Below are positions 1-16,090 of a stretch of 64,000 nucleotides of DNA, piece after piece. This DNA is from Pseudomonadales bacterium (GTDB taxonomy: Bacteria; Pseudomonadota; Gammaproteobacteria; Pseudomonadales; Azotimanducaceae). Numbering within the stretch: position 1 is the first letter of the stretch; each line of letters starts with the position of its first letter. The translations under genes were made by a program, and so were the position numbers. The stretch is taken from the NCBI GenBank assembly GCA_963667455.2, contig CAXXFR010000019.1:97181-161180 (forward strand), in the 5' to 3' direction. The notes under the pieces were generated by a model. That model had not been told where the DNA came from and made no database searches. It saw only the letters and a list, made by a program, of their open reading frames with translations.

Positions 1-918
1 GTTGACATTGAATCAACGGACGATGTGCTCTTTGAGTGTCTCAATGCTATTGTTCGATTGACGGTTGCGAAGGATCGATTCGAACCAAACTCCTACGTCT
101 GGATCGTTTCCCGCACTGGAGATTTTCGCACCCTGACGTTGCGGTGCATTGCCCCTGGTTCTTGGATTCGAGATGTTGTCAAAGACTTTCGCAGCAGCAT
201 GCGGTTTTCGGGCACCCTCTCTCCCCATGACGTGTACGTCGCAAGTCACGGACTTCAGGGTCCTTTTCGGAGAGTGAACATAGAACCCGACCACAGACGA
301 TTCGGAGTGATGATCGTTCCAGACGTATCGACTTACTGGCGAGATCGGAGCGATAGTGCCGGATCAGTGGCAAGTATCGTGCGTACGGCAAGAGATGGAG
401 CAGTTGGCAATTGGCTCGTTGCCTTCCCTTCCTTTGAGTACATCAACTTGGTAAGTCAGTACTTTCTCGAAGATGAAGAAACACGCGAGCAGCAACGAGA
501 GATGCCAATTAGTGAGCGAAGTGAGTTTATTGGATGGATTTCTCAGGGATCGCGACGCGTTGCCTTCGTCACGATGGGCGGCATATTCACCGAGTCGGTA
601 GACATTGACGGAGATGTCTTAGCAGGAGTCATTGTGATTGGACCGGCAATACCTCCATCAAGTCTGGAACGGGAGCTAATCCGGGATACGTCGGAATTGG
701 GCTATGAACTGGCTTATCGCCAACCAGCTCTTACGCGAGTTGTTCAGGCTGCTGGACGAGTTGTGCGTGGACCGGCGGATCGAGGCGCGATCATTTTGGT
801 CGATCCTCGTTTTACGCATCGTGAGGTTCAGCAGTATTTTCCCAGCCATTGGGATCCGGAAGTCGTCCGTTGCGAGGACTTGGGTGAAGCATTGTCGAGG
901 TTCTCCCTAGCCATTTGA
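1..918 (+). CDS. DinG/XPD (Rad3)-family SF2 helicase, C-terminal part only (5' end lies outside the window)
   Basis: Frame 1 is open from base 1 to TGA 916-918. The translation carries the RecA2/Helicase_C_2-type half: MRFSGTLSP, VAFVTMGGIFTESVDIDGDVLAGVIVIGPAIPP and the motif VI-like QAAGRVVRGPADRGAIILVDPRF. Confidence 0.7.
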   Translation, partial: VDIESTDDVLFECLNAIVRLTVAKDRFEPNSYVWIVSRTGDFRTLTLRCIAPGSWIRDVVKDFRSSMRFSGTLSPHDVYVASHGLQGPFRRVNIEPDHRRFGVMIVPDVSTYWRDRSDSAGSVASIVRTARDGAVGNWLVAFPSFEYINLVSQYFLEDEETREQQREMPISERSEFIGWISQGSRRVAFVTMGGIFTESVDIDGDVLAGVIVIGPAIPPSSLERELIRDTSELGYELAYRQPALTRVVQAAGRVVRGPADRGAIILVDPRFTHREVQQYFPSHWDPEVVRCEDLGEALSRFSLAI

Positions 919-1097
919 CAGATCGGCGACGTTCAGTCTGCGTGGTCAAGCGCACTTGGGCTCTGCTCTCTCACACATACGAAGTTGGGAATTCAGCACA
1001 TTTCCCAGCCCTAGGATCGAATGTCCACGGTTGCATTGGCAGAGCTAGCAAGGCTCAGTTCATGTGACTCTAAACTCGTCGAAATTGCCCTGAAGAA

Positions 1098-1129
1098 GCG
1101 ACACAACTTGTCGCGTCCGTGTGGATACT
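1098..1129 (+). promoter_or_regulatory. Operator/promoter element copy 1: GCGACAcaactTGTCGC + 10 nt + ATACT
   Basis: The palindrome is at 1098-1114 with 6-bp arms. Exactly 10 nt separate it from ATACT at 1125-1129 (GATACT is -10-like). The same architecture and spacing occur at four sites, always upstream of a + strand gene of the array. Confidence 0.55.
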
Positions 1130-1131
1130 AG

Positions 1132-1255
1132 CGTCGAGTCTGATGCAGAACCCAGTTAGCGAATCATCCTAGTAGAGAGTTTTTTCATTCAACAACGAGG
1201 TACTTATTTTGGGGTTTCTTACTGAGGAAACGGGGTTTTGCGTCAGACTCTGACG
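1132..1255 (+). promoter_or_regulatory. Conserved structured 5' leader of A1 (putative cis-regulatory RNA)
   Basis: cgtcgagtctgatgc (1132-1146) can pair with gcgtcagactctgacg (1240-1255). This gives 4 bp + 11 bp with one bulged T and one G:U pair. The block is 81% identical to 2553-2675 upstream of A2. Confidence 0.3.
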
Positions 1256-1423
1256 ACCTCCGAGAGCTGGGAGACCACGACCCTTGACGGATTTCTTCAG
1301 GAGAACTCTCGAGTTGCCACACAATGACCCTCGTTGCCGTCGACTGACGCAGGTACGCAGACATCTCGGCGGCTAGTCGCTACCAAGAACGCAACGTAAA
1401 TTGGCAATGGAGTTAAGAGTCCA

Positions 1424-2320
1424 ATGACTGAGAATGAGACAGACACAGAAACAACTGAATGGCCCCTCTTTGAGGAAGTCAGTAAACGATGTGACGTACG
1501 TAGAGACTTTCCGAAGCTACTGAAGACGATTGAAGAGCACTCGTGCGGGATCGTCACAGCTCATCGCAACTACCCCACAAAGAGACAACGCAGGGCAATG
1601 GCCCGCGATGACGATGGATGGGGAGTTTTGCAGGAAGTTCAAGAAATCGAAGAACGAAATGTTAGCCTGAATCAAGATAGGCAAGAAAGGCTAGTCGAAC
1701 AGATCAACGAAGCGCGTTACAAGAGAATAGAGATTCGTCATATCTGTGGGAACATCGTGGAAGGGTCACTTCTGATTTGGCCTACCCGTGCCCGCAGAGG
1801 GCGAGACGAACCTCTGTTGCGATTCCTCAAGGACTTAAGCAAGAAATTCAATCAGAAGTCCTTCTACTTTTTGCCCTACCAGTCCCCTCCAATCATGTAC
1901 GATTTTCGGGATGGTCAATGGGTACCAGAGCGTAAGCGTGGAATTTCCACGTTGATTGACTTTGAACGAGTCCTGCAGGAACACAAGCAGGTTGCGTACC
2001 GCGATCTACCAGGACCCAAACTACCCAGCATTTCGGCCTGTGAGGTCGTCAAACTAAGCGATCCCATCCATCCCATACTTCGAAGCCAACGGGCAAGTCC
2101 TTCAATGGCCAAAGCCATGTTCTACAGGGATTTTCACCACAAGATTGACGTGATGGACTTCTTGTCGTCTATAGAGAGAGAAAGGCACCTTACCACTCTT
2201 CAGTATGAGACTCTCTTTGACCTTCTTGAATGGGCCGAATCGTCCTTGAGTTGGTTCACCCGGTCTCTCATCAATCTAAGGTATAGAAAACGTAACGATG
2301 TCGGAGAAGACGCGGAGTGA
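1424..2320 (+). CDS. Hypothetical protein A1 (298 aa), member of a 4-paralogue family with N-terminal SCGI(V/I)TAHRN motif
   Basis: ATG at 1424 is preceded by ggag. It shows 58% aa identity to A2 over 105 hand-aligned residues. Shared motifs are SCGIVTAHRNYP, EERN..RQERL, SLLIWP, ARRGRDEPLLRFLKDLSKKF.Q.SF and MDFLSSIERERH. Confidence 0.8.
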   Translation: MTENETDTETTEWPLFEEVSKRCDVRRDFPKLLKTIEEHSCGIVTAHRNYPTKRQRRAMARDDDGWGVLQEVQEIEERNVSLNQDRQERLVEQINEARYKRIEIRHICGNIVEGSLLIWPTRARRGRDEPLLRFLKDLSKKFNQKSFYFLPYQSPPIMYDFRDGQWVPERKRGISTLIDFERVLQEHKQVAYRDLPGPKLPSISACEVVKLSDPIHPILRSQRASPSMAKAMFYRDFHHKIDVMDFLSSIERERHLTTLQYETLFDLLEWAESSLSWFTRSLINLRYRKRNDVGEDAE

Positions 2321-2518
2321 CCGCGTTAGAAGGGATGGAACTGTTGAAAAGCCTCGGATCACCACCTGTCCCCCTAGGTCTGTTGCCTCCTCTAGCGGCG
2401 AGAATCAGGCATTCTTGTGTCGTTTCGAAATGGGAGCGCAGGCAAATACGCTGGGCGAGTGCAAGCGTGAGAGACGCACCCTGAGACAACACATCGCCGG
2501 TAAAGTCACCTTTTAGAA

Positions 2519-2550
2519 GCGACACAACTTGTCGCTACTGTGTGAATACT
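2519..2550 (+). promoter_or_regulatory. Operator/promoter element copy 2
   Basis: GCGACACAACTTGTCGC is at 2519-2535, followed by 10 nt and then ATACT at 2546-2550. Confidence 0.55.
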
Positions 2551-2552
2551 AA

Positions 2553-2675
2553 CGTCGAGTCTGATGCAGAGTCCTGTAAGCGAATCTTCATAGTAGACCG
2601 TTTATTCGTAGATCAATGAGGTACGTGGATTGCCTTTTCTTACTGAGAACTCGGGGTTTGCGTCAGACTCTGCCG
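2553..2675 (+). promoter_or_regulatory. Conserved structured 5' leader of A2 (putative cis-regulatory RNA)
   Basis: The same arms as in copy 1 are present (2553-2567 and 2660-2675). The inner 11-bp helix is identical. The outer 4-bp helix has one mismatch. Confidence 0.3.
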
Positions 2676-2895
2676 ATCGAGGAAGGCCTGTGGTCTGTGA
2701 GCCCTTGTCGAATGCGACCAAGAGAGCACTGGAGTCGCCTTGCAGGGACGAATCCTAGCAATTAGAAGGCAATCTGACCGATAGAGCGGCACCGCCATGA
2801 TTGTCGTTTCCATGGACTGGCGCCGATATGTAGACACATCGACGTGAAAGCACTGCGACGAACACAACACATCAGGGCATTGAGTACGGAATTCA

Positions 2896-3780
2896 ATGAC
2901 AAAACGTGAGACAAAGACTACACGGGAACCTGAATTTGAGGAGGTCAGTGATCGATCTGACCTAAGTAGCGATTTTCCGAAAGTGCTGAAGGCGATTGGA
3001 AAGCGCTCGTGTGGGATCATCACAGCTCATCGCAACTATCCTGACAAGAAACAACGAAGAGCACTCAGTGATCAAAGGCATGGTGACGGAGTATTTCATA
3101 TCGTTCGTGAAATGGAAGAACGAAATGTTCACTTCAATCGAATTCGACAAGAAAGGTTACAGGAACACATAAACGAGTCGTATTACACGCAGATTACGAT
3201 TGATCATCTGTCTAATGACATCTTGGAATCATCAAGCCTGATTTGGCCACTATTTGCCCGCAGAGGACGAGACGAATCTCTGTTGCGATTCCTCAAGGAC
3301 TTGAGCATGAAATTCGGTCAAAATTCCTTCTTCTTCTTCCCGTATCAATCGACTCCGCTCATGTACGAGTATCGGAGCGGTCTATGGACCTCAGAGAGCA
3401 AGTTCGAAATCTCCACACTGGATGACCTTGAACGAGTCTTGCAGGAGCTCAAGTGGGCTGCGTACCGTGATTTGCCAGGACCCGATTTGTCCACGATTTC
3501 AGCATGCGAGGTCATCAGGGTCTGGGGTCCAAGGCAACCCTGGACACGGATTCAACACGGAGGTCTTTTCATGGCAATAGCAATCTTGCATGGGATGTAT
3601 CTCCACAGACTTAAAAAGATGGACTTTCTATCGACCATCGAGCGAGAAAGGCACATTAGTACTCCGCAATATGAGAACCTGCTAAATTCTGTGAGATTGA
3701 ATCGGTTTAATCGCTTTCTCATCAATCTGAAGTACAGGAAACGGCGCGATGTCCATAAAGACGCGGAAGAGTCGAGTTAG
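2896..3780 (+). CDS. Hypothetical protein A2 (294 aa), paralogue of A1
   Basis: It is collinear with A1 and carries SCGIITAHRNYP, EERN..RQERL, SLIWP, ARRGRDESLLRFLKDLSMKFGQNSF and MDFLSTIERERH. Confidence 0.8.
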   Translation: MTKRETKTTREPEFEEVSDRSDLSSDFPKVLKAIGKRSCGIITAHRNYPDKKQRRALSDQRHGDGVFHIVREMEERNVHFNRIRQERLQEHINESYYTQITIDHLSNDILESSSLIWPLFARRGRDESLLRFLKDLSMKFGQNSFFFFPYQSTPLMYEYRSGLWTSESKFEISTLDDLERVLQELKWAAYRDLPGPDLSTISACEVIRVWGPRQPWTRIQHGGLFMAIAILHGMYLHRLKKMDFLSTIERERHISTPQYENLLNSVRLNRFNRFLINLKYRKRRDVHKDAEESS

Positions 3781-4179
3781 TCAAGAACGAATAGAGCTAT
3801 TGAAGACCTAGACACCCCAGTCTTCGCGCCGGAGTCTCCAACGAGAGGGATACGGCTCATCTAGCGGTGCGCGATTGAAGGTTGGCGAGCGGTCTCTCTC
3901 ATCGCACCATCCAGGATCTGATCAGCAGTCACTTCACTTACTGTTCTCTTCAGCCTCGAGAGCTCGTTTTGGTCACTGAGCTAAATCTGTGGACTGTTGA
4001 GGGAAGTGACACCGAAGCGGCTGGAATCATTGAGCCTTCTTTGCGAATTCGTCTCACGTCGAGTGTCGGACACTCTCTGAGACCCGTCGCGATGAAAACG
4101 GGGCCAGAACTCTCGGCGAGCACGGTCATAGGGGAAGCACTTTCAGACAGATCATCTCTTGCGAAATCACTCTCCAGAA

Positions 4180-4211
4180 GCGACACAACTTGTCGTTTGA
4201 GTGTGGATACT
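4180..4211 (+). promoter_or_regulatory. Operator/promoter element copy 3
   Basis: GCGACACAACTTGTCGT is at 4180-4196, followed by 10 nt and ATACT at 4207-4211. It lies about 95 nt upstream of the B1 ATG. Confidence 0.55.
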
Positions 4212-4306
4212 ACCGATGTTCTCGAGCCGTGGGCTAGTGTGGACTCCCGTCCGAGACCACTGAAAATTCAGTCAAATCCAATCCCAAAATCAGATCCAGG
4301 AGCACT

Positions 4307-6457
4307 ATGGTTGACCGATCATTAACCCGCCAGCGACCTACCCGTCGTAGCCATCAAAACGGCGCAAGCGCGGCTAAAGCGCAGATGAGGCCCATCTGTC
4401 GTTTATGGATTCTCCGCTTTTTGTGTGGCTATAGCAAGAACCGGAGGCACCTCGAGAGAAAGGGCGTGTGCAATTCAGACCTAGTTGAACGACTTCAACT
4501 CACGCCCCCCATTCCTCAGTCGGACAGCTCGACGGATGGAGTTGAACTAGGTACTCTGGATTCCGAACTGACGGTGGCTGAACGATCAGCCGAGCGTACC
4601 CTTCCACCCAAGGGACTGAGGGATAACGTGAGACGTGTCGGCAGATTGTTTGGATTGACAGAAGTCGAACACGACGTTCTTTCCCTTGCAATCCTGCTGT
4701 CAACGGATTCCGACCTGATTTCACACTTAGGCGTAGTGAATTCGTTGAACGTGAACGAAGTGGTTGCAATCGTCTCAACCGTACTCGCATGGGATGTCTG
4801 CGAAGTAGAGTCTGCCATTGATTCCGATGGAGGTCTCTACCGGCACGGACTGTTGCGCCCAGAGCATGAAGGGTCCGTTGACAACGGATTGGCCGATTGG
4901 TTGATCCCCTTCAGTCCAGACTTCGCTCGCAACATGATGCGAGACGATCAGAGGGAAGTATCGTTGTTCGCAGACGCATTCTGCATCGATCCTCCGACCG
5001 AACTGACGTTGAATGATTTCTCTTTTCTAGGTCGACCGTTGGACCACTTAAGGACCCACATCCTAAAGTCTGTCGATACGGGACAGCAGGGCGTGAATTA
5101 CCTGATCCATGGAGACAGCCGTACAGGCAAGACTGAATTCTGTCGCGCACTCGCGAGAGACACCGAATTGGTGCTACACGAAGTCTCTGTGGACGGCACA
5201 GACGAAGATGACGACGAATGCACGCGAAATCAGGCCGCAGTAACAATTGCACAGCAGCATGCCGAGAAGTCTCGAGGGCTTGTTGTCGTCGACAATGCCG
5301 ACTACTTGTTCCCAGAAGAAGAGGACAGCTTCTTCTCACGGAGGTCGCGACGACGTTCCAGAAGAATCGGCTTTGAAGAGACAGACAGTTCCATCGAACG
5401 CATATTGGCTTCAAACGGGTCGCCAACGATCTGGATTGTTCAAGACACTGAAGACATTAGTGAGAAATTCATCGATTCATTTGATCGAGTGTACGAAATG
5501 CAGACGCCACCTCCGAGACATCTTCGCGAGATTGTTCGCAAGCAACTTCCGAACTGCAATGAAGAACTCGTGAGAAGTGTCGCGTCCATTGCCGGATTGG
5601 ATTCGTCCTCAATCCAGAACGCACGTGACTTTGCATCAATTGTGGATGGGGATCCCAGTTCCGAGGCTTGGAATGAAGCTTTCATCGACAGCTTCAATGC
5701 TCGGCAGAAAGTACTCGATCGTCCTCCGATCAGGAGAAACGATCCGTCCATGCCAACAGACCTGTACAACATGCGCTACATCAATTCAAACCCCGGGTTG
5801 GATGGAATCATGCAGCGGATTAGGGCAGATTCGGGTGCTCGTATGCTTCTGCACGGACCTCCGGGAACGGGCAAGACCGCTTGGGTCAAGCACTTGGCAC
5901 AAGAGTTGCAAGTCGATCTTGTACAAGTCACGGCATCACAGATTCACAACAAGTATGTGGGCGAAACGGAGAAGAACCTCAGCAAGGTATTCGCACAAGC
6001 CGCCCAATCGGGAGCTCTGCTGTTGATCGATGAAGCCGACACCTTTCTCTACGACCGGCACGGGGCTAAACAGTCCTGGGAAGTGTCGTTTGTGAATGAG
6101 TTTCTAAGCCAGTTGGAGAACTACCTCGGATTGCTGGCGGCGACAACCAACTTTCGGCAGCTCGTTGACAGCGCTGCCATTCGTCGTTTCGGCATCAAGA
6201 TTGAGTTCATGTTTCTCACTTGGGAGCAAATCTCTTGGCTCTTCAGTGCCTATTGCGACCAGTACGGATTGCACATAACCGATGAACGGGAATTGCTTGA
6301 ATTACGTGGCGTTGGCGTCTTGACCCCAGGGGATTTTGCGGCTGTAGACGAACGCAATCGCTTTTGCCCGATTACTACGGTTCGAGAGTTTGTCGAGGCT
6401 CTGATCGAAGAGTGCTCCCACAAACGAGAGAGGGGATCGTTAGTTGGATTCCATTGA
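4307..6457 (+). CDS. Tandem-AAA+ ATPase B1 (716 aa): unassigned N-domain, D1 with Walker A but DNAD Walker B, canonical classic-clade D2
   Basis: D1 has Walker A GDSRTGKT (5111-5134) and Walker B VVVDNAD (5282-5302, no catalytic Glu). D2 has GPPGTGKT (5855-5878), YVGETEKNLSKVF (5948-5992), LLLIDEAD (6017-6040), ATTN and AAIRRF. Confidence 0.85.
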   Translation: MVDRSLTRQRPTRRSHQNGASAAKAQMRPICRLWILRFLCGYSKNRRHLERKGVCNSDLVERLQLTPPIPQSDSSTDGVELGTLDSELTVAERSAERTLPPKGLRDNVRRVGRLFGLTEVEHDVLSLAILLSTDSDLISHLGVVNSLNVNEVVAIVSTVLAWDVCEVESAIDSDGGLYRHGLLRPEHEGSVDNGLADWLIPFSPDFARNMMRDDQREVSLFADAFCIDPPTELTLNDFSFLGRPLDHLRTHILKSVDTGQQGVNYLIHGDSRTGKTEFCRALARDTELVLHEVSVDGTDEDDDECTRNQAAVTIAQQHAEKSRGLVVVDNADYLFPEEEDSFFSRRSRRRSRRIGFEETDSSIERILASNGSPTIWIVQDTEDISEKFIDSFDRVYEMQTPPPRHLREIVRKQLPNCNEELVRSVASIAGLDSSSIQNARDFASIVDGDPSSEAWNEAFIDSFNARQKVLDRPPIRRNDPSMPTDLYNMRYINSNPGLDGIMQRIRADSGARMLLHGPPGTGKTAWVKHLAQELQVDLVQVTASQIHNKYVGETEKNLSKVFAQAAQSGALLLIDEADTFLYDRHGAKQSWEVSFVNEFLSQLENYLGLLAATTNFRQLVDSAAIRRFGIKIEFMFLTWEQISWLFSAYCDQYGLHITDERELLELRGVGVLTPGDFAAVDERNRFCPITTVREFVEALIEECSHKRERGSLVGFH

Positions 6458-6912
6458 CCGGAACATCTCGTTGCTTGGTGAACGGAACTGCTCTTCGGAC
6501 GAAAACGTGCACTGCATCCGGGAACGGTCGAGAAGCAGCATGCAATCCTGTTGTTTTGTTTGACGTACTAGCCTGAATGGTTCGAAGTAATGGATTTCAC
6601 GGTGCGGCCGGTTGGAAGAGCCAGCCGCACAAGACCTGTCGAAGACTGTGTTGAATTGCCTTGTTTTAGATCGGTTGATCTGTGCGCTCGAGGGACGGCT
6701 CGTTGCAACTTCAGCTCCGTTTAGTCACCGGATTTGCATGGTCGGACCGTGCAATTGATGCCGATTTCGCCCGAAATTGATGATTTAGCGCAAAAAGTTG
6801 GGCAAATTACTTAACTTCTCAAGTCCTAATCGGAATATATAGGGGAGAGTTTGAATATTTTGGGTGACTTCCGTGCCAATTGTGCCGAAATTCGTGAATT
6901 CGCTTCGACAAC

Positions 6913-6944
6913 GCGACACAACTTGTCGTTTATTTGCGCATACT
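6913..6944 (+). promoter_or_regulatory. Operator/promoter element copy 4
   Basis: GCGACACAACTTGTCGT is at 6913-6929, followed by 10 nt and ATACT at 6940-6944. It lies about 97 nt upstream of ATG 7042. Confidence 0.55.
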
Positions 6945-7041
6945 GACATCTGTTCGCGCAATTGGGGCGATCATGCACCGGCATCAAAGAGGAGTGGATT
7001 TTCGCTCACGCCCCGTTGTAGCAGCGGATCCAGAGACCATC

Positions 7042-9192
7042 ATGATTGATCGATCAACCGACCGCCGGCGGACAAGCCGTCGAAGTGGACAGACAGACTC
7101 CAATACGGTAGCTGAGCGTGAAGACTCCCTACTTCGTCTGTGGACGCTTCGCTTCTGTTGCCGGTACGGCAAGATGCGCAGGCGCATTGAGAGGAACGGT
7201 CTGACCAACGCAATTCTGGTCGAGAAAATCCAGTCCGCCATGCGCGAGATCGGTTCGCACGACCTGAAAGCCAATAGCGCATTGGACGTTCTAAACTCCG
7301 AACTGAAGATAGCTCAGAGATCAGCCGAACAGACATTGCTTCCTGAGGGATTGCGAAACAATGTGCGGCGCTTGAGAGAGCTGTTTGACTTAACGGAAGT
7401 CGAAGCCGACATACTCACATTGGCAATCATGCTTTCGACCGACCTTGACCTGGCCTCCCAATTGAAAGTGTCGAAATCCTTGACGTTGGACGATGTCATT
7501 GAGATTGTCTCGGTTGTGCTCGACTTTAGCGTTCGCGACGTTCAGTCCGCTATCAATTCCGCTTCAGGTCTGTACAAGCACGGATTGCTACGCACAGAAC
7601 TTGCTCAATCAAAGCGCAAGGGCCTCGCGGCATGGCTGACTCCCTATAGCCCAGATCATGTTGCCAAGATGATGCAAGACAGTGAGAAGGAAGCACTGTT
7701 GATCGAAGACGCGTTTACCAAGGACTCTCCGACGGAACTGGTGTTGGAGGACTTTTCTTATCTCGGTCAGTCTCTTGACTTTCTGACAGCTCACTTCCGG
7801 CGGTCTGTTGAATCGGGAAAGACTGGCGTGAACTACTTGCTCCACGGAGATCGTGGATCCGGAAAGACCGAGTTCTGCAGAGCATTTTCCAAAGAAGTAG
7901 ATCGGGTTCTACTCGAGGTGGCTCAAGTAGAAACGGGAAGCGAAGTCATGGAACTCAAGCAGAGAACGTGCGCGGTGCTGCTGAGCCAGCGAATCGCCGA
8001 GAAACTAGGAGGATTCGTTGTTGTTGACAATGCCGACGAGTTGCTCCTGCATTTCGGGCAACGATATATGAATGCCAGTTTTCGATTTCAAGCAAGAAAC
8101 TGCGAGTTCGACGAGGCAGGCGAACCGTTAGAACGCATGATGGCTTCGAACCCGGTGCCCACAGTCTGGATCGTTCGCGACCAAGATGATGTCTTCGACG
8201 AGATCCTTGCTGAGTTTGACGGAGTGTATGAAATGCAGAGTCCATCGTCGACTCGCCTCAGGGAGATGGTCAAGAAACAACTTCCTGGTTGCGAGGAGAG
8301 TCTCGTGCGAAGAATCGCATCCGTACCGGGTATCAATCGGGCCACGATACATGCCGCTCGTGACTTCGCTTCAACAATCGCCGACAGTCCCCAATCTAGC
8401 GTTTGGGTCGAAGCTTTCATCGAAGCGTTCAATGCACGTCAGAAGATTCGCAAGAAACCTGTCATTGGAACGAATGTCCCCACGTTGCGAACTAGTCTGT
8501 ATCACGAACGCTACGTCAGTTCACAGCCAAACTTGGATGGAGTCATGCATCGCATTGGCGAAGAATGCAGAGCGCGATTGCTCCTATACGGACCGCCTGG
8601 GACTGGAAAGACTGCTTGGGCCGGGAACTTGGCCAAGGAGCTGGATATCGATCTGGTGCAAGTTACCGCATCGCAAATCCAACATCACTACCCAGGCAGA
8701 GCTGAAAGAAGAATCAGGAAAGTGTTCTCGAAAGCCCAACAATCAGGAGCACTGCTCTTGTTCGATGAAGCCGACACCTTCCTCTACGACCGTCGGAATG
8801 CACACCGATCTTGGGAAGTTTCTTTCGTGAATGAATTTCTCACACAGCTAGAGAACTACACAGGATTGATTGCGGCAACGACTAACCTACGGTCACTTGT
8901 CGATAGTGCGGCGATTCGTCGTTTCGACATTAAAGTAGAGTTCAAGTTTCTTGAGTTCGAGCAAGTGACAGGACTCTTTAGAGCTTACTGTGAACGGTAT
9001 GGATTACGCGTTACGGACGAACGAGAACTCGATGAGTTGCGCAACATTGGTGTGCTAACCCCAGGAGACTTCGCCGCCGTGGATGAACGAAGCCGCTTCT
9101 TCCCAATCCGGTCAGTTGAGCAGTTCAGGGAAGCTTTAATCGACGAGTGCTCTCTCAAGCCCGATTCCAATAGGCAATTTGGATTTCAGTAG
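7042..9192 (+). CDS. Tandem-AAA+ ATPase B2 (716 aa), paralogue of B1
   Basis: I moved the start from the ORF-track TTG 6934 to ATG 7042. MIDRSTDRRRTSRRSGQ then parallels the B1 N-terminus MVDRSLTRQRPTRRSHQ, the length becomes identical to B1, and 6934 lies inside the promoter element. Motifs: D1 GDRGSGKT and VVVDNAD; D2 GPPGTGKT, LLLFDEAD, AAIRRF. Confidence 0.85.
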   Translation: MIDRSTDRRRTSRRSGQTDSNTVAEREDSLLRLWTLRFCCRYGKMRRRIERNGLTNAILVEKIQSAMREIGSHDLKANSALDVLNSELKIAQRSAEQTLLPEGLRNNVRRLRELFDLTEVEADILTLAIMLSTDLDLASQLKVSKSLTLDDVIEIVSVVLDFSVRDVQSAINSASGLYKHGLLRTELAQSKRKGLAAWLTPYSPDHVAKMMQDSEKEALLIEDAFTKDSPTELVLEDFSYLGQSLDFLTAHFRRSVESGKTGVNYLLHGDRGSGKTEFCRAFSKEVDRVLLEVAQVETGSEVMELKQRTCAVLLSQRIAEKLGGFVVVDNADELLLHFGQRYMNASFRFQARNCEFDEAGEPLERMMASNPVPTVWIVRDQDDVFDEILAEFDGVYEMQSPSSTRLREMVKKQLPGCEESLVRRIASVPGINRATIHAARDFASTIADSPQSSVWVEAFIEAFNARQKIRKKPVIGTNVPTLRTSLYHERYVSSQPNLDGVMHRIGEECRARLLLYGPPGTGKTAWAGNLAKELDIDLVQVTASQIQHHYPGRAERRIRKVFSKAQQSGALLLFDEADTFLYDRRNAHRSWEVSFVNEFLTQLENYTGLIAATTNLRSLVDSAAIRRFDIKVEFKFLEFEQVTGLFRAYCERYGLRVTDERELDELRNIGVLTPGDFAAVDERSRFFPIRSVEQFREALIDECSLKPDSNRQFGFQ

Positions 9193-9399
9193 AGTGCCTA
9201 GATCTTTAATGAGAGTGTCCCATCGCCGTCTGGTTGAGATTGAAGTGTCCGTGCTTCATGAACCCCCGCCCAGTAGGACTAATTCCTTCTCCCGATACGT
9301 CTCAAGCCACGAACCAAGAATCAATCCAACATCTAATCGATCTAGTACCACTGCCCAAGTCGCAGAGACTTGCAATTTTGAACCGATAGGAGTCTACCA

Positions 9400-10053
9400 A
9401 TGAACACGCCGAAACGAACGAACCGGCCTCATCGTAGCGAGTCGGACACCAGCAATTTAGAGCCATCTTTCCAGAACATGCTGAAAGTTCGCCGGAAATT
9501 CTCGTGCGGGATGATCTCTGCGCACAAAATCGTATACGGCCGCAAGAGCCGTCAATCAGCTAAGGGGACAAGTGCTATGCAGGCCGCTGACGGACACCTT
9601 TCGTTCCGAGAACATATACAAGACAATCATTTGCTTCACATCAGGTTATCCGGGCTTTCTCCTGACTGGATGTATGAGGAGAAAAATGAAGAACGTGAGA
9701 AAGAGATGGCTTCTGTCATAAGTCAGAGCGGCTATAACCAATTTCTGATGGAGAGCTTCTTCGCAAGGGTCAAGATAAACTCGTTTTGGGTTTGGAACGA
9801 CGCAGACCCAGGCGCGGGCAGTGGAGATCTTTTGACCTTTCTTCAGCGATTGGCAAAGGATTTCGAACAAGACTCATTTCAGCTCATTCCGTTCAAGAAG
9901 CAAATAACCCTGTACAGACGAGATTTGGACATCAATGGAGCTTGGAATGGCAACTGGCTCACTACGGGAATGGGATACATATCGAAAGTGAAGACGGGGC
10001 AGGTCCGTGTAGCTGAAAGTTATCGTCTGCTAGAGATTACTGGACCTCATTAG
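9400..10053 (+). CDS. Hypothetical protein A3 (217 aa), distant and shorter A-family member
   Basis: An aggag RBS precedes ATG 9400. It shares SCGMISAHK, EEREKEMA, FWVWND, LLTFLQRLAKDFEQDSF with A1/A2 in the same order. It lacks the C-terminal third. Confidence 0.7.
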   Translation: MNTPKRTNRPHRSESDTSNLEPSFQNMLKVRRKFSCGMISAHKIVYGRKSRQSAKGTSAMQAADGHLSFREHIQDNHLLHIRLSGLSPDWMYEEKNEEREKEMASVISQSGYNQFLMESFFARVKINSFWVWNDADPGAGSGDLLTFLQRLAKDFEQDSFQLIPFKKQITLYRRDLDINGAWNGNWLTTGMGYISKVKTGQVRVAESYRLLEITGPH

Positions 10054-10177
10054 AGTCTATTGTCCTATCGGATTTATCACTACCTGAATCGGTGCAAGTG
10101 CCGTCGACTGTGGCGCGTTGACTCTAGCACATACATTTCGAAAACTGAAGCGAACTACAGCTAATGGGAGCGAATCA

Positions 10178-11173
10178 ATGAATGACACTACTTTGTGTTG
10201 CCCAAGTGAACAGGGCACACCTTTCGAAGAGCAAGAATTTGAGACTACGATAAGTGAATTGTTGGAGATTTGTGCGAATTTCTCGTATGGAATATTGTCA
10301 GCACAACGCAATCGGTTCAACTTGAATAGTCTACAGGACTTCAAGAGTCTATTTGCGCGAGTCGAGAGCGGAGTCATCGATCCAGTGCAGGTCGTGCAGC
10401 AGTTGTTGCAAAGGAACCGAACATTGCAACGTGAAAACGCGTTAGTTAATGAAAGGCGGGAGAATAAGCTCGCGTCGGTCATAACCTATGAGCGTCTAGA
10501 TCGATTCAATATTCGAGGTGTCTTTGAGGATTCCGTGGACACTGACTTTTTGGTTTGGTATGACGGTGACTCGGACAACCAGATGGCTGATTTGCTACTC
10601 ACGCTTCTCAAAGAGCAGAGTGCGAATTTCGGTCAACATTCGTTCATCTACCAACGCAAGGATGAGCCGGTGTGTCGATATTCTCGATCATGGAATGGCG
10701 ATAGCGGCCAGTTCGGCGAGTGGCTAGTCGAGAGCGTTGGATCTGTGTCGACGCTCCAAGATCTTGAGAGGTTGTTGGGACGAAGCAAACTGACATCATT
10801 CCTCAATTGGGCTGGTATTGATGTGGAAGCTCGAATTGACTCAGAATCAGGTTCGGAGAAAGCTTCTCCTACGCTCGTAGACTTGATTTCGCAACAGTCT
10901 ATGGGCTACACAATTCGACGAGTTATTGGTCCGATTGAAGGCTGGGATGGAAGTTACGGTTTCTTCTCCGGGTTGGCAAATCAGGAGCGAGATTCGGAGG
11001 CTAAGTGTCACATGGATACGGTGGCGTTCTTGGAAGAAATAGCCAAAGAGCGATATATCTCGACCACGGAATTTGAAGCGATCGCGGATCGACTCGAGGC
11101 GAAGAGGAAAAGGCTTAGCAGGGGTGTGCGTCGGCGGATAGCTCGAAAGTTCCCGTTGTTTAGTGAGAGTTGA
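10178..11173 (+). CDS. Hypothetical protein A4 (331 aa), distant A-family member
   Basis: I prefer ATG 10178 (gggag lies 8 nt upstream) over the ORF-track TTG 10118. It shares SYGILSAQRN, NERRENKLA, FLVWYD, LLLTLLKEQSANFGQHSF, VSTLQDLERLL and AFLEEIAKERYIST with A1/A2. Confidence 0.7.
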   Translation: MNDTTLCCPSEQGTPFEEQEFETTISELLEICANFSYGILSAQRNRFNLNSLQDFKSLFARVESGVIDPVQVVQQLLQRNRTLQRENALVNERRENKLASVITYERLDRFNIRGVFEDSVDTDFLVWYDGDSDNQMADLLLTLLKEQSANFGQHSFIYQRKDEPVCRYSRSWNGDSGQFGEWLVESVGSVSTLQDLERLLGRSKLTSFLNWAGIDVEARIDSESGSEKASPTLVDLISQQSMGYTIRRVIGPIEGWDGSYGFFSGLANQERDSEAKCHMDTVAFLEEIAKERYISTTEFEAIADRLEAKRKRLSRGVRRRIARKFPLFSES

Positions 11174-11336
11174 AGCGACGTAGTTGACTCCCGCCAATTG
11201 GGTGTGCAGTGCACCGTGAAGGGTCGGATTCAGTGATGGGTGAAATCAGCATGGAATTCAATGCCGTTGGCACCAGGTGTCGTTGACATAAGCGAGCGGA
11301 GTATGATTTCTTGAGCTTGACTTACTCCTCTTCCGA

Positions 11337-12335
11337 ATGCCCGCTCGGCAACACAGCATCGATACCACCCTATTCGCGTTGGCCGTTATCAAACGAATCC
11401 CAAGGGAACAGACCATTTCGGCGCAAGAGCTCACGGACCAACTGGAGGAAGCAGGAATTGATCGAAACGTGAGATCAGTGCAACGCATGCTTAAGGTGCT
11501 TTCTTCACACTTCGACATTGACTGCGACACAGATCACCGCCCGCATCGCTACTGTTGGAAACCGAACGCGGCCGCGATGCTGATTCCCATGGTCGAGCAG
11601 AACGAAGCATTGATGTTGCTATTTGCGGAACGATTTCTGGCAAACATCCTGCCGCCGGGTGCATTGCCATCGTTTGAAGGAATTCTCAAACAAGCCCACG
11701 ACATGCTTGTCAACAAGCAACAGTCGCATGGTCAGTGGTTGGACAAGGTCCGCGTGGCTCATCCCACGCCTTTACTGTATCCGCCTGATGTCGATCCGGA
11801 CGTGCTCCGGTCGGTTTCCGAATGCTTATTCGAGAATCGAAAACTGCGCTTGAATTACCGAAACAGGAGAGGGGAATTGAACGATTGGGTGGTTCTTCCG
11901 CTTGGATTGGTTACTCGTGCACAAGTGCTCTACTTGATTTCAAAGTTCGATGACAGTGATACCCACTATCGACTTGCGTTACACCGGATGGTTTCGGTGC
12001 ACCCAACGACCATTCGTTTTGCTCCTCCCGCAGATTTCGACATTGACCAGAGCATCGCGGAGTATGGATTCTCGCCGGGAAATCGCAAAGTCGTGAAGCT
12101 GGAGTTTTATGTCGATAGAAGGGCTGGGAATCACCTGACCGAGTCCCTACTCTCGAAAGATCAGGTCTGCACTGAGCTGGAGCACGAGTACCATATAGCC
12201 GCTACGGTCCGGGACTCGATTGAACTGCGACATTGGTTGTGCGGATTCGGCGACTCCATCAGAGACATATCCATCGACGGAGAACGAGTCAACATCAACG
12301 AGTCAAGAACTTGGTTTGGTGGTGATTTAGAGTAG
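11337..12335 (+). CDS. WYL-domain transcriptional regulator (wHTH - WYL - C-terminal WCX-like domain)
   Basis: The N-terminal wHTH is IPREQTISAQELTDQLEEAGIDRNVRSVQRMLKVL. The central WYL-type segment is LRLNYRNRRGELNDWVVLPLGLVTRAQVLYLISKFDDSDTHYRLALHRM. The C-terminal part is VKLEFYV...IELRHWLCGFGDSI. Confidence 0.75.
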   Translation: MPARQHSIDTTLFALAVIKRIPREQTISAQELTDQLEEAGIDRNVRSVQRMLKVLSSHFDIDCDTDHRPHRYCWKPNAAAMLIPMVEQNEALMLLFAERFLANILPPGALPSFEGILKQAHDMLVNKQQSHGQWLDKVRVAHPTPLLYPPDVDPDVLRSVSECLFENRKLRLNYRNRRGELNDWVVLPLGLVTRAQVLYLISKFDDSDTHYRLALHRMVSVHPTTIRFAPPADFDIDQSIAEYGFSPGNRKVVKLEFYVDRRAGNHLTESLLSKDQVCTELEHEYHIAATVRDSIELRHWLCGFGDSIRDISIDGERVNINESRTWFGGDLE

Positions 12336-12461
12336 CGGTTCGGCAACGACCAGCGTCCATCGAGGAAGTACGTGCGCCGACTCAATTCATCGCGGGTGAA
12401 GACAGTTTTTCTTGGAGCTGTGCAATCCCTTGAAGACGGACATGGAAAGGAGATTTGACAA

Positions 12462-13172
12462 GTGTCCCAATCCGATAATTCTGACATCAGTGTGATCAAG
12501 ACACGCAAGATTCCGTGGTACAGAAAACACTTACCAGTGGTCGCCCTAAGTGTGGCGATCATTGTCGTAAGTGCGACGTTACTGCATCATATGATGAGTT
12601 CCAATGCATCGAACTTGACGGTCGAGATCATGGCTGCAGTGGTTGCAGTGGTCCTGGTGGTGGCATCCGTGGCCGTAACATTGCACTTTCAGTCTGACTA
12701 TGAAGTGGAGAGAGACTGTAAGACCGAGATATTTAAGAAACGATTGGAGATTTATGAACATATTCTTGAAATGTATTCTGAGCTGGATGACGAAGACAAT
12801 ATTAACGAGGACAAACTCAACAAGATTCAGAATCTTGCTTTAAGAGCATCTTTGGTAGCCACGACCGACGTCACTGCTTCAATGGCAAACTACACCCGAA
12901 ATATCTGGCTTGAAAGGAAGCTATACTTTAGTGATCAGGAAGTGAAAGACCTTCAGGATAAGTTTGGAGATGATCCGCAGAGAAGGATGTATCCCGGGTC
13001 ATTTCGAAGTTTGGTAAAAGAGATGAGAGAAGACTTGAATCTTATCGAAGAAGAGGACAAGAAGAAGTTCCTAGAGGAATCGATCAAGATTTTGGTCAAT
13101 ATCGAAAAGAAGTCACAACCGAAACACACCGTAGCTAGACCTGGTCAGCAAGAGGAATTGCGTAGCGCCTAG
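12462..13172 (+). CDS. Hypothetical membrane protein: 2 N-terminal TM helices plus a charged helical domain
   Basis: GTG 12462 lies 9 nt after aaggag. The TM segments are LPVVALSVAIIVVSATLLHHM and VEIMAAVVAVVLVVASVAVTLHF. The C-terminal part is K/E/D-rich. Two sampled 60-nt lines (12721, 12781) have 18/60 and 22/60 G+C. Confidence 0.6.
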   Translation: MSQSDNSDISVIKTRKIPWYRKHLPVVALSVAIIVVSATLLHHMMSSNASNLTVEIMAAVVAVVLVVASVAVTLHFQSDYEVERDCKTEIFKKRLEIYEHILEMYSELDDEDNINEDKLNKIQNLALRASLVATTDVTASMANYTRNIWLERKLYFSDQEVKDLQDKFGDDPQRRMYPGSFRSLVKEMREDLNLIEEEDKKKFLEESIKILVNIEKKSQPKHTVARPGQQEELRSA

Positions 13173-13197
13173 TCTTCAAATCGTGGAAATCAGGGAG

Positions 13198-14388
13198 ATG
13201 AGCATGGACTCGATGAGTGAATTTCGAGAGCAGACAAGAGATTGGCTTCGAGCGAATTGTCCCGAAGGAGGTCGAGGTCCTGGCCCAGTCACATCGGGGA
13301 GCAGCAAGACACCTGTACGCGATCCCGATACGCGATTGTGGCTCGACCGGATGATCGAGAAAGGGTGGACGGCTCCCACTTGGCCAGTCGAGTACGGAGG
13401 AGGTGGACTCAATACCGAGCAGTACATGGTCTTGATTGAGGAGATGCGCAACATCAATGCTCGTGTTCCGCTGATGGGCATGGGTATTTCGCTGATCGGA
13501 CCGACATTGCTCGAGTTCGGCACCGAGGACCAGAAACAACGCCACATACCTCGAATCGTACGAGCCGAAGTCGGCTGGTGCCAGGGATATAGCGAGCCCA
13601 ATGCCGGTTCGGACCTTGCCTCGTTGCAAACCCGAGCCGTGGACAACGGAGACCACTACGTCGTAAACGGATCCAAGATTTGGACATCAGGTGCTCAGAT
13701 TGCCGACTGGATTTTTGTCTTGGTTCGAACTGATCCGGATGTTCCGAAGCACGACGGAATCAGCTTTGTTCTCATGGATATGGCGCAAGAGGGAGTCAGC
13801 GTCAAGCCGATTCGATTGATATCCGGCGAGTCGCCGTTTTGCGAGACGTTCTTCGACAACGCCATTGTCAAGAAAGAAGACCTTGTTGGAGAATTGAACA
13901 AGGGGTGGACTGTCGGCAAACGCTTGTTGCAGCACGAACGCGGAAGTATGGCTTCGCTGGTTGGCGGTGGAGTGTCTCGAGAGGCAGGTCCATCGCTCGA
14001 ACACGAGGCGAAGGCTCTTGCCGGCGAGAGCAATGGACGCATTGCGGACGAGGCGTTCCGTAGCCGAGTTGTTGAATCCAACATGAACTCACATGCATTC
14101 CAATTGACTCAACGACGAACCGTTGAAGAGACTGAAGACGGAAGTACTCCCGGTCCACAGACATCCATATTCAAGATGTACGGGACCGAACTCCAGCAGG
14201 AGCGAGCAGAACTATTGGTCGAAATGCGTGGATCCGACGGACTGGGATGGAGTGGACGAGAATTCAGCGCTCACCACATTGGCGGTACCCGCGGATGGCT
14301 GGCGGGCAGGGCTGCTTCGATCTACAGTGGAAGCAACGAAATCCAACGCAACATTGTTGCGAAGCGCGTGTTGGGACTACCTGACTAG
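13198..14388 (+). CDS. Acyl-CoA dehydrogenase family protein
   Basis: Motifs: GWTAPTWPVEYGGGGL, GYSEPNAGSDLASLQTRAV..GDHYVVNGSKIWTSGA, and C-terminal IYSGSNEIQRNIVA. The start is ambiguous (GTG 13183, ATG 13198 or 13204). Confidence 0.85.
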   Translation: MSMDSMSEFREQTRDWLRANCPEGGRGPGPVTSGSSKTPVRDPDTRLWLDRMIEKGWTAPTWPVEYGGGGLNTEQYMVLIEEMRNINARVPLMGMGISLIGPTLLEFGTEDQKQRHIPRIVRAEVGWCQGYSEPNAGSDLASLQTRAVDNGDHYVVNGSKIWTSGAQIADWIFVLVRTDPDVPKHDGISFVLMDMAQEGVSVKPIRLISGESPFCETFFDNAIVKKEDLVGELNKGWTVGKRLLQHERGSMASLVGGGVSREAGPSLEHEAKALAGESNGRIADEAFRSRVVESNMNSHAFQLTQRRTVEETEDGSTPGPQTSIFKMYGTELQQERAELLVEMRGSDGLGWSGREFSAHHIGGTRGWLAGRAASIYSGSNEIQRNIVAKRVLGLPD

Positions 14389-15172: not shown

Positions 15173-15289
15173 ACCTAGACTGCTGAGAAGCGGGACTAGT
15201 AGAAGCTAGCCGATACCTGAGGACTTGACTTCGACGGATCGTTGTGTATTGACTACAATTGGAGTCCACCGTCCTTGCAACTAGGTGTC

Positions 15290-16090
15290 ATGATGCGGCC
15301 CATTCAACTCTTACAGAGACTATTTTTTCTGACGGCACTGTTTGTCTGCATATCGAGTACAGCCCAACCCTCGGGATTGTTCTTTGGTGGGCTTGGGTCG
15401 ATTGCCCAATCAGAAGTCGCATTTTCCAAGGACGTGGACAATACGCACCCGGACAACCCAACAACGGTTGCGGGAAGGATATTTCAAACCACTAACGAAG
15501 GCGATGGATACCTAGCGCATGTGGGCGCGACTGTAGGACTTAGGCACACATGGGACTCACAGTTTCTAAGCGTGCAGCTCGAAGTCGCTACAGGTGCCGG
15601 ACGCGTCTCCGGATTCGTTCCCGGTGCGGGTATTTCGTCCTCTCGGGCTCAATATGGCGAAGCTTGGCCTGAGACCTTTGAGGTGAGTCGTACGAACGAA
15701 ATCGGTTTGGTCGCGAAGTGGGGACGTTCCACTCAAATGAACAGTTGGACTGCGATATCAGGCTGGTATGTACTGCTGGGAGCAAGGTTCGTGGTTGAAG
15801 CGGATTTTGAATTGAGACACCAGCGTGGCTGTTATATTCCGAGTGGATGTGAGGGTCAACAATTCCAATCCGGTTCTTTCCAATATGAAGTTGAAGATCG
15901 CACTTTTCAGTTTGGTGCAGGGCTGGAACACACGTTCAATGATCGTCTAGCCGCGCAGTTGGAGTTGCGCATTGAAACTCCTTTCGAGAAGACGTGGGTG
16001 GACAAGTTTGAAAACGACACAGTGCTTGTCGGTCACGAACTTGAACTGACCAAGTTGACTGTTTCCCTCAATATTTTGAGGTTTTTCTAA
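15290..16090 (+). CDS. Putative outer-membrane beta-barrel protein
   Basis: I chose the start at MMRPIQLLQRLFFLTALFVCISSTAQP, which is signal-peptide-like. The sequence has alternating amphipathic strands and a C-terminal aromatic ...LNILRFF. Confidence 0.55.
   Translation: MMRPIQLLQRLFFLTALFVCISSTAQPSGLFFGGLGSIAQSEVAFSKDVDNTHPDNPTTVAGRIFQTTNEGDGYLAHVGATVGLRHTWDSQFLSVQLEVATGAGRVSGFVPGAGISSSRAQYGEAWPETFEVSRTNEIGLVAKWGRSTQMNSWTAISGWYVLLGARFVVEADFELRHQRGCYIPSGCEGQQFQSGSFQYEVEDRTFQFGAGLEHTFNDRLAAQLELRIETPFEKTWVDKFENDTVLVGHELELTKLTVSLNILRFF

Follow-up and report, generated by a model that had tools for sequence, protein, structure and literature searches.

A candidate conflict or defence island in a Pseudomonadales genome: a duplicated tandem-AAA+ ATPase, a WYL regulator and four divergent relatives of phage SAM lyases

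The first 13,172 nucleotides (nt) of a 64,000-nt stretch from a Pseudomonadales bacterium (assembly GCA_963667455.2, contig CAXXFR010000019.1, positions 97,181 to 161,180 of the forward strand; hereafter the window, at its full length) hold nine consecutive + strand genes: the end of a helicase gene, four genes for small proteins (A1-A4), two for tandem AAA+ ATPases (B1 and B2), one for a winged helix-turn-helix (wHTH)-WYL regulator and one for a protein with two transmembrane segments (2-TM protein). We read this region, with a probability of roughly 40%, as a conflict or defence island of composite make-up, fixed in the chromosome and centred on the duplicated B gene and the wHTH-WYL gene, with A1-A4 as its cargo and the 2-TM protein perhaps also among the accompanying genes. 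The analysis itself shows the gene anatomy, the fold and homology assignments, a common operator, the linkage of B and WYL genes across genomes and the lack of any A-B linkage elsewhere. An initial annotation of the same DNA had placed the nine genes where our map of open reading frames (ORFs) finds them and had remarked on the look of a conflict or defence island, which our results support; its proposal of a categorically new nine-gene system is not borne out, because the S-adenosylmethionine (SAM)-lyase superfamily and WYL-regulated defence-island cassettes are both known kinds. The fold of the A proteins is a known one; what is new is a bacterial branch of it with added domains, a four-fold expansion, a dedicated operator and a leader RNA.

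Results

A tandem-AAA+ ATPase and a WYL regulator form a conserved cassette

B1 and B2 are both 716 aa long and 55% identical over 687 gap-free residues. Their earlier description as classic-clade tandem AAA+ ATPases proved correct: Pfam AAA is found in two stretches of B1 (4.9e-32), and PDB matches reach 7e-23, the best ones for the second module (D2) being Rix7, AFG2, VAT and p97. Both proteins also match phrog_10401, a family labelled 'ATPase' without assigned function, over their full length (1.4e-87 and 1e-80). The D2 module of B1 carries the motifs GPPGTGKT and IDEAD, a KYVG pore loop and an arginine pair, and the first module (D1) has a Walker A motif, GxxxxGKT, from which we read nucleotide binding. 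The N-terminal region of ~250 aa has a predicted local distance difference test score (pLDDT) below 50 in the AlphaFold2 model of B1; in a Pfam scan of B residues 1-250 no Cdc48-type N-domain (double-psi barrel) was found, the only return being a sub-threshold WHD match in B2 (E 0.017). Membership of the IetAS system was considered and rejected: the PADLOC IetA models match D2 alone (1e-27), the NCBIfam IteA model gives 84.7 bits against a cut-off of 510 bits, again in D2 only, and 1-13172 contains no gene for a protease.

The D1 Walker B motif reads D-N in both B1 (5285-5300) and B2 (8020-8035) where the family consensus is D-E, and pore loop-1 of D2 is HYPG in B2 as against KYVG in B1. These sequence changes hint at a division of labour within a possible B1/B2 hetero-hexamer.

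To place the pair in other genomes, we gathered 14 further B loci (24-31% identity) from metagenome assemblies, a Pseudomonadales metagenome-assembled genome, ten plasmids and one phage-labelled contig. The scan of genome contigs with the B1/B2 alignment relied on over-specific peptide patterns and gave one locus (L003), and a word-indexed search with B1 gave three relatives among a flood of generic AAA+ candidates. B and WYL genes are paired in 10 of the 14 loci, in agreement with the earlier suggestion that the regulator belongs with the ATPases: they adjoin directly in nine (L004, L005, L011, L014, L016, L017, L018, L019 and L020) and have one gene between them in the tenth (L008), and in two further loci the WYL gene stands 4-8 kb off. 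Over its full length, the WYL protein of the window shares 39% identity with those next to B in L008 and L011 (Rhodoferax and Pantoea plasmids); the B proteins of these two loci likewise rank among the nearest to B1.

The company of the pair differs from one locus to the next. In L008 it stands beside the candidate defence system PDC-M27, which consists of a PLD-like protein and a SNF2 helicase (PDC-M27A 1.9e-182, PDC-M27B 1.3e-242). Elsewhere the neighbours are Sir2 with BREX-2 close by; an ADP-ribosylglycohydrolase with HEPN, a PD-(D/E)XK nuclease and a UvrD helicase; DUF2779 or TM0106 RecB-like nucleases; or DnaB-like helicases with a DEDDh exonuclease; HipA is likewise annotated near B loci. 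Since the pair recurs while its neighbours change, B and WYL form a conserved cassette with variable company, a pattern typical of defence islands, and repair genes are also found nearby. The cassette extends across alpha-, beta- and gamma-proteobacteria, where it is carried on plasmids, on the phage-labelled contig and in chromosomal islands; we found no description of a tandem-AAA+/WYL cassette in the literature.

A1-A4 are divergent relatives of phage SAM lyases

A1 and A2 are 57-58% identical over their full length, and A3 and A4 are their distant relatives, as had been proposed (BLASTP 6e-16 for A1-A4, 4e-8 for A1-A3 and 1e-11 for A3-A4). None of the four has a match in Pfam, NCBIfam, PHROGs or PADLOC. 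The initial annotation was thus right that they belong to no named family as far as ordinary library searches go, and wrong for their common N-domain, which can be assigned to the SAM-lyase/PII-like fold. The family is extremely rare. Profile searching with HMMER, run exhaustively over 1.84 billion representatives, brought up 9 A-family clusters in all. A word-indexed search of 5.8 billion clusters yielded, besides the window's own A proteins, only one A3-like protein and one that is 69% identical and encoded on a metagenome contig of 999 bp. Outside the window, members are found in a small number of ENA metagenome assemblies (L001, L002, L006 and L007) whose sample labels begin with NGUY21-1 or PANK22-1, and the family seems confined to one habitat or lineage.

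Several routes lead to the fold. The three most distant of the 9 clusters (E 5.7e-6, 1.4e-5 and 8e-4) match PF23780 S-AdoMet_lyase (6.5e-25, 3.8e-7 and 2e-12) and DUF3293; an A-only profile aligned to the PF23780 members with hhalign gives 99.0% probability, E 4e-18, over 124 columns; and the best PDB sequence for the PF23780-member profile is the phage T3 SAM lyase (E 0.0011). When PDB sequences were searched directly with a profile of the A alignment, no SAM lyase came up, only ferritin at chance level (E 0.003), and the PF23780 and DUF3293 Pfam models do not match the relatives P0006-P0009 at E <= 1. The AlphaFold2 model of A1 (mean pLDDT 79.8) has as its top two Foldseek matches in the PDB the T3 SAM lyase (8bb1_E; probability 1.0, template modelling (TM) score 0.52 on the target) and Svi3-3 (6znb). 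Against the predicted viral structures of BFVD, the same model finds many 125-140-aa early proteins of T7-like phages (probability 1.0, TM 0.5-0.62), an annotated SAM hydrolase among them, and also a large polyvalent protein domain. Because the PF23780 carriers, the hhalign result, the T3 link and the AlphaFold2 model agree, we assign the common N-domain of A1-A4, as a prediction, to the SAM-lyase/PII-like fold; A1-A4 are very divergent relatives of the phage SAM lyases and make up a rare bacterial branch. The domain covers ~residues 25-175 of A1, with a helical insertion after the first strand at 53-96, and is followed in A1, A2 and A4, not in A3, by a helical C-terminal extension of ~120 residues.

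We then read the active-site positions from our own alignment, which is uncertain near the shortened T-loop. In the phage enzyme Svi3-3, Gly56, Glu69 and Gln104 are the sole strictly conserved residues of the family and all stand at the ligand site; activity depends critically on Glu69, and a side chain in place of Gly56 would find no space beside the ribose (PMC7877911). The CRISPR-associated SAM-AMP lyase structurally conserves just the Glu and the Gln (PMC12255297). The Gln104 equivalent is a Gln in A1/A2, A3 and A4 and is invariant in every A member. At the Glu69 equivalent, A1/A2 have Glu, A3 has Ile and A4 has Asp; three metagenomic members have Glu, which makes 5 of the 9 family members overall. 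The Gly56 equivalent is His in A1/A2, Ser in A3 and Gly in A4, and also Gly in the relatives P0006 and P0007. The full, unchanged Gly/Glu/Gln set is found in none of the A proteins of the window, A4 retaining a G-x-F motif and the Gln together with its Asp. The single-copy relative P0007 retains G-x-W, Glu and Q-E, which suggests that the A family had a catalytically active ancestor. Since this fold forms its active sites where subunits meet, mixed trimers of A1/A2 and of A3/A4 could complete such sites; the A proteins could equally have turned into ligand sensors.

A and B genes occur without each other

Co-occurrence of A-like and B-like genes across genomes, whose absence the initial annotation had named as grounds for refuting its model, is seen at none of the loci gathered here outside the window. 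A-family profiles find no A-like ORF in the 14 B loci. Conversely, no B gene is near the A genes in three loci: in L002, a pair 60% and 55% identical to A3 and A4 (A3'-A4') follows an SbcD/SbcC-like pair; in L006, a single A gene stands between recN-bamE and rnfH/smpB; and in L007, a single A gene stands beside an AbiEi-like gene. An obligate A-B machine working as two interleaved sets is therefore unlikely, each kind of gene occurring without the other.

L002 is syntenic with the window, A4' being followed by a WYL remnant and then by an acyl-CoA dehydrogenase gene whose product is 53% identical to that of the window. Of the WYL gene, only the last ~53 codons are left (L002 11753-11911), 64% identical to those of the window. 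By this synteny, A3-A4-WYL is an old arrangement, and A1, A2, B1, B2 and the 2-TM gene are additional in the window.

A common operator precedes A1, A2, B1 and B2

The initial annotation had noticed one promoter/operator element at four of the genes, and at A1, A2, B1 and B2 we find four exact + strand copies of the 16-mer GCGACACAACTTGTCG, each beginning at the first nucleotide given for the operator copy in Table 1. The 16-mer occurs nowhere else in the 64 kb even when 3 mismatches are allowed, and none of 100 shuffles reached 4 matches. It is the core of a 6-N5-6 inverted repeat, GCGACA-N5-TGTCG(C/T), with 65-81% identity between the four copies in the 54 nt around it. The operator pattern had 0 matches when metagenome and viral contigs were scanned. 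These copies are good evidence, as far as sequence goes, for co-regulation of A1, A2, B1 and B2 in this genome, and not for an obligate machine.

The obvious candidate for the operator-binding protein is the WYL protein of the window. It matches Pfam WYL above the cut-off (4.2e-10) and two PADLOC WYL models (3.9e-18 and 9.3e-15), which span residues 16-253 and 151-309, the WCX domain reaching 14.2 bits (E 0.057) against a cut-off of 23.9 bits; a sequence search found no solved structural relative. A point against this candidate is that no operator copy precedes the WYL gene itself.

A structured leader follows the operator at A genes

Directly downstream of the operator at A1, at A2 and at A3' of L002, and not at B1 or B2, lies a leader of ~124 nt. 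Copy 1 forms a long hairpin, closed by a helix of 21 bp, with a minimum free energy of -50.4 kcal/mol (z -5.07; 0 of 200 shuffles). The consensus of the three copies has 32 pairs, with 91.7% of cells paired as against 35-50% with slid partners, and 5 of the pairs are changed on both sides, a number reached by 7 of 500 shuffles. The three one-sided changes in the closing helix all keep a G-U wobble on the + strand (AU->GU once, CG->UG twice), which argues for an RNA of that strand. Between the window and L002 (9543-9700) the leader DNA is 77% identical, the adjacent proteins just 55-60%. No Rfam family was found for the leader, the miRNA-like matches being at chance level and reflecting the long hairpin, and pattern scans of metagenome and viral contigs gave 0 matches and no further copies. 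A reading as a small ORF was set aside, the 9-codon ORF of the A1 and A2 copies not being conserved in L002. The three copies found suggest a candidate new cis-regulatory RNA of A-family genes.

Flanking genes and other features

The helicase fragment matches Pfam Helicase_C_2 (1.2e-25) and belongs to the XPD/DinG (Rad3-like) family. It is ~30% identical to the products of ~800-aa XPD/DinG-type 'ATP-dependent DNA helicase' genes, which stand among Ku, UdgX, GIY-YIG, dinB and umuD on a Legionella plasmid and among ordinary genes in Enterococcus. The initial annotation had counted the helicase as a possible member or effector of the system; having no operator copy and relatives of the repair type, and with SbcCD standing in its place in L002, it is, on this sequence context, probably a flanking neighbour and no part of the system. 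The PADLOC typeIV_DinG model also matches the fragment (6e-37). A type IV-A CRISPR reading (CasDinG/Csf4) was not adopted, as no cas genes, CRISPR repeat families or arrays were found downstream of the helicase within the window and its closest annotated relatives lie outside CRISPR loci.

The 2-TM protein is an orphan that forms a singleton cluster, with sub-threshold Pfam matches only (DUF6297, 0.0037; DUF4231, 0.034) and no match in NCBIfam, PHROGs or PADLOC or among plasmids. DUF4231 presumably belongs to the SLATT group; we do not claim a SLATT reading of the 2-TM protein from that match. The gene is missing from the syntenic locus L002, and its earlier proposal as an effector finds no support, the protein having no detectable relatives, and remains a guess.

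To the right of the 2-TM gene the window turns to housekeeping genes: acyl-CoA dehydrogenase, a DedA/VTT protein, Lhr, SDR, enoyl-CoA hydratase and SMC. Two ORFs of this flank, 15242-16090 (282 aa) and 26722-29037 (771 aa), have no Pfam match at E <= 1e-5. The B2 ORF can be extended upstream to TTG 6934, 5 nt past the operator; the N-termini of B1 and B2 align from ATG 7042. A 147-aa ORF with a TTG start (3882-4325) covers the A2-B1 intergenic region including operator copy 3 and is most likely spurious. A scan of 1-13400 for sigma-70-type promoters found 0 sites, as against 11.0 +/- 2.7 in shuffles; either this host uses promoters unlike the E. coli consensus, or the region avoids such sites.

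Table 1. Features of the region, with positions in the window unless L002 is named.
Feature	Position	Strand	Description
Helicase, C-terminal fragment	1-918	+	305 codons, cut by the window edge
Operator copy 1	1098-1114	+	GCGACA-N5-TGTCGC, in the 54-nt conserved block 1080-1133, upstream of A1
Leader RNA copy 1	1132-1255	+	upstream of A1; long closing helix, partly conserved interior
A1	1424-2320	+	298 aa; predicted SAM-lyase-fold N-domain and helical C-terminal extension
Operator copy 2	2519-2535	+	upstream of A2
Leader RNA copy 2	2553-2675	+	upstream of A2; 80% identical to copy 1 over 145 nt
A2	2896-3780	+	294 aa; A1 paralogue
Operator copy 3	4180-4196	+	111 nt upstream of the B1 start; no leader hairpin
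B1	4307-6457	+	716 aa; tandem AAA+ ATPase
Operator copy 4	6913-6929	+	113 nt upstream of the B2 ATG
B2	7042-9192	+	716 aa from ATG 7042; B1 paralogue
A3	9400-10053	+	217 aa; short A-family member, SAM-lyase-like domain only
A4	10178-11173	+	331 aa from ATG, 351 aa from TTG 10118; long A-family member
wHTH-WYL(-WCX) transcription regulator	11337-12335	+	332 aa
2-TM protein	12462-13172	+	236 aa; cytoplasmic helical C-terminal half
Leader RNA copy in L002	9582-9705		before A3'

Discussion

We infer a working for such an island that would involve an operator-binding protein, an enzymatic activity of A, a client of B and a role in defence. A dimeric repressor, most likely the WYL protein, would sit on the 6-N5-6 inverted repeat and keep A1, A2, B1 and B2 off until a stress, DNA-damage or infection cue frees the operator; for characterised WYL repressors, the cue is single-stranded DNA (PMC11662680) or DNA damage. 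The A proteins would then form PII-like homo- or hetero-trimers that bind, and in at least some cases cleave, SAM or a SAM-derived or adenosine-containing metabolite, which would shut down methylation-dependent processes or remove a signal. A B1/B2 hexamer would act as an unfoldase or remodeller on some client. By analogy with the Sir2 and HEPN cargo of sister cassettes, a metabolite-depleting or growth-arresting effector role is plausible for the A proteins.

A number of observations weigh against the defence-island reading. The Gly56 equivalent is replaced in A1, A2 and A3, and the Glu also in A3; the T-loop, which spans the Gly-to-Glu stretch, has ~6 fewer residues in every A member than in the phage enzymes; the PF23780 and DUF3293 Pfam models do not match A1-A4 even at E <= 0.1; and the Foldseek E-values of the A1 model against the PDB are weak (0.016 and 0.047). 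As regards joint action, the common operator is the only tie between A1/A2 and B1/B2 in the window, and no A-like ORF accompanies B in the other loci. In L002 the operator and leader persist upstream of A3' with no complete WYL gene beside the A genes, so something other than the WYL protein may bind the operator. The island's left border falls outside the window. Finally, A3-A4 have been kept at the same chromosomal place in two genomes whose flanking acyl-CoA dehydrogenases are only 53% identical, a stability that is unusual for fast-turnover defence cargo.

The A proteins may be non-catalytic PII-like ligand sensors or regulators, or inhibitors that bind MetK, the locus then being a signalling or stress module. 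The PII/GlnB-like superfamily consists mostly of ligand-sensing trimers (PMC7877911, PMC12255297), the T3 SAMase also acts by binding MetK (PMC8406200), and the losses listed above (Gly56 equivalent in A1-A3, Glu in A3, part of the T-loop) would fit. The invariant Gln104 equivalent, the Glu kept in 5 of 9 members and the G-x-W, E and Q-E of P0007, which suggest ancestral catalysis, argue the other way, and we regard a sensor role as rather unlikely. On another reading, the A proteins could be the inducible effectors of an undescribed immune strategy: once derepressed, they would destroy SAM or a SAM-derived messenger and so arrest the infected cell or deprive phage methylation of its substrate, activated or assembled by the B1/B2 unfoldase, with the A genes under a new class of structured leader RNA that possibly senses a SAM-related metabolite; taken as a whole, this is improbable. 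About as improbable is an obligate multi-gene machine of the kind first proposed, with the A proteins as clients or adaptors of B, arranged in interleaved sets or hetero-oligomers, and the helicase, the 2-TM protein or both as effector. The same operator at A1, A2, B1 and B2, the placement of nine genes on one strand and the similar divergence of the two pairs (57% and 55%), which fits duplication at about the same time, speak for such a machine; it sits badly with A genes that stand without B in L002, L006 and L007, with the 14 B loci that lack an A-like ORF, with a helicase that has no operator and resembles those of repair contexts, and with the absence of the 2-TM gene from L002.

The neighbourhood itself admits two further explanations. 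DriD, PafBC and SiwR are WYL regulators of damage responses, and a DriD/PafBC-like WYL protein might here control a remodelling ATPase and accessory proteins near repair genes, in a DNA-damage-response module that has nothing to do with defence. Repair-type neighbours are indeed present here and in L002 (the XPD/DinG helicase, SbcCD, and Lhr downstream), and B-WYL often stands beside RecB-like or PD-(D/E)XK nucleases, UvrD, and Pol II or Y-family polymerases; the same cassettes, however, also adjoin PDC-M27, Sir2, HEPN, BREX-2 and HipA, and a SAM-lyase-fold protein has no obvious place in repair, which makes this account distinctly unlikely. Less likely still is that the locus is the counter-defence cargo of a decayed mobile element, the A proteins being anti-restriction or anti-BREX enzymes of the SAMase type, like those of phage T3 and polyvalent proteins, and B-WYL having come from a plasmid or phage. 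The characterised relatives of A outside CRISPR loci are all phage anti-defence enzymes, the structural matches of A include phage proteins and a large polyvalent protein domain, and B homologues are common on plasmids and present on a phage-labelled contig. Yet integrase, transposase, tRNA, conjugation and phage structural genes are all missing from the 64-kb window, its right flank is housekeeping, A3-A4 are syntenic in a diverged genome, and other A members stand singly between housekeeping genes. We keep the composite island as our working interpretation, at the probability given above.

Comparison with known systems

By prediction and profile homology, the core fold of A resembles that of the phage SAM lyases (T3 SAMase gp0.3 and Svi3-3; PF23780 and the related DUF3293), with which A has in common the motifs S-x-G-x-[IV]-[ST]-A-x-R and N-x-x-R, the Glu at the end of the T-loop (A1 and A2) and F-x-Q-x-S with its invariant Gln. 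Unlike the phage enzymes, the A proteins are bacterial and chromosomal and have 217-331 aa instead of ~125-160; they have a helical insertion of ~45-60 residues after the first strand and, A3 excepted, the ~120-residue C-terminal extension. Their T-loop is shorter, A1-A3 have another residue at the Gly56 equivalent, and none of the four reaches the Pfam threshold. SAM lyases are PII-like trimers that have their active sites at the subunit interfaces and cleave SAM to MTA and homoserine lactone. In the SAM-AMP lyase of Clostridium botulinum the catalytic Glu and Gln lie at the trimer interfaces (PMC12255297). This enzyme, from a type III CRISPR-CorA locus, is cellular, encoded at an immune locus and a member of the PII-like SAM-lyase superfamily (PMC12255297), and sets a precedent for a host-side role of the fold, namely signal degradation; unlike its locus, the window has no Cas10, CorA, NrN or CRISPR array. 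The SAM-lyase fold has so far been represented by phage anti-restriction and anti-BREX enzymes and this one CRISPR-associated signal-degrading enzyme. A chromosomal, four-fold expanded and co-regulated A branch would widen the biology of the fold, be it to host SAM depletion, signal degradation or ligand sensing, and if the immune-effector reading were true, the host would be wielding the very enzyme fold that phages use against restriction and BREX.

The B proteins resemble Cdc48/p97, VAT, Rix7 and AFG2 in having two AAA modules and, in D2, Walker A and B motifs, a K-Y-V-G pore loop and an arginine pair, and differ from the Cdc48/p97 type in the low-pLDDT (<50) N-region of ~250 aa and in the loss of the Walker B Glu from D1 of both B1 and B2. 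They are like IetA in that D2 matches the IetA models; unlike IetAS, the window has no IetS protease partner. The WYL protein is similar to the BrxR/CapW-type wHTH-WYL-WCX repressors in its WYL domain, above the Pfam threshold, and in the position of its gene beside defence-type genes, and dissimilar in its weakly detected WCX domain (E 0.057). BrxR boxes are inverted repeats with 11-bp arms and a 5-bp spacer, placed between promoter and gene (PMC9122601); the candidate operator is likewise an inverted repeat with a 5-bp spacer, its arms being 6-7 bp instead of 11 bp.

Among the closest known counterparts are plasmid B-WYL cassettes such as those of Rhodoferax antarcticus (NZ_CP019242) and Pantoea sp. 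At-9b (NC_014840), whose B proteins are 29-31% and WYL proteins 39% identical to those of the window and in which gene order and strand are the same. The plasmid cassettes have a single B gene, no A-family gene and PDC-M27 as cargo; the window has two B genes and, between B and WYL, two A genes. The tandem-AAA+/WYL pair, recurrent beside changing defence and nuclease genes and without a described function, may matter more generally, and the window offers a B-WYL variant with unusual neighbours and a clean operator that could serve for studying how the cassette is regulated.

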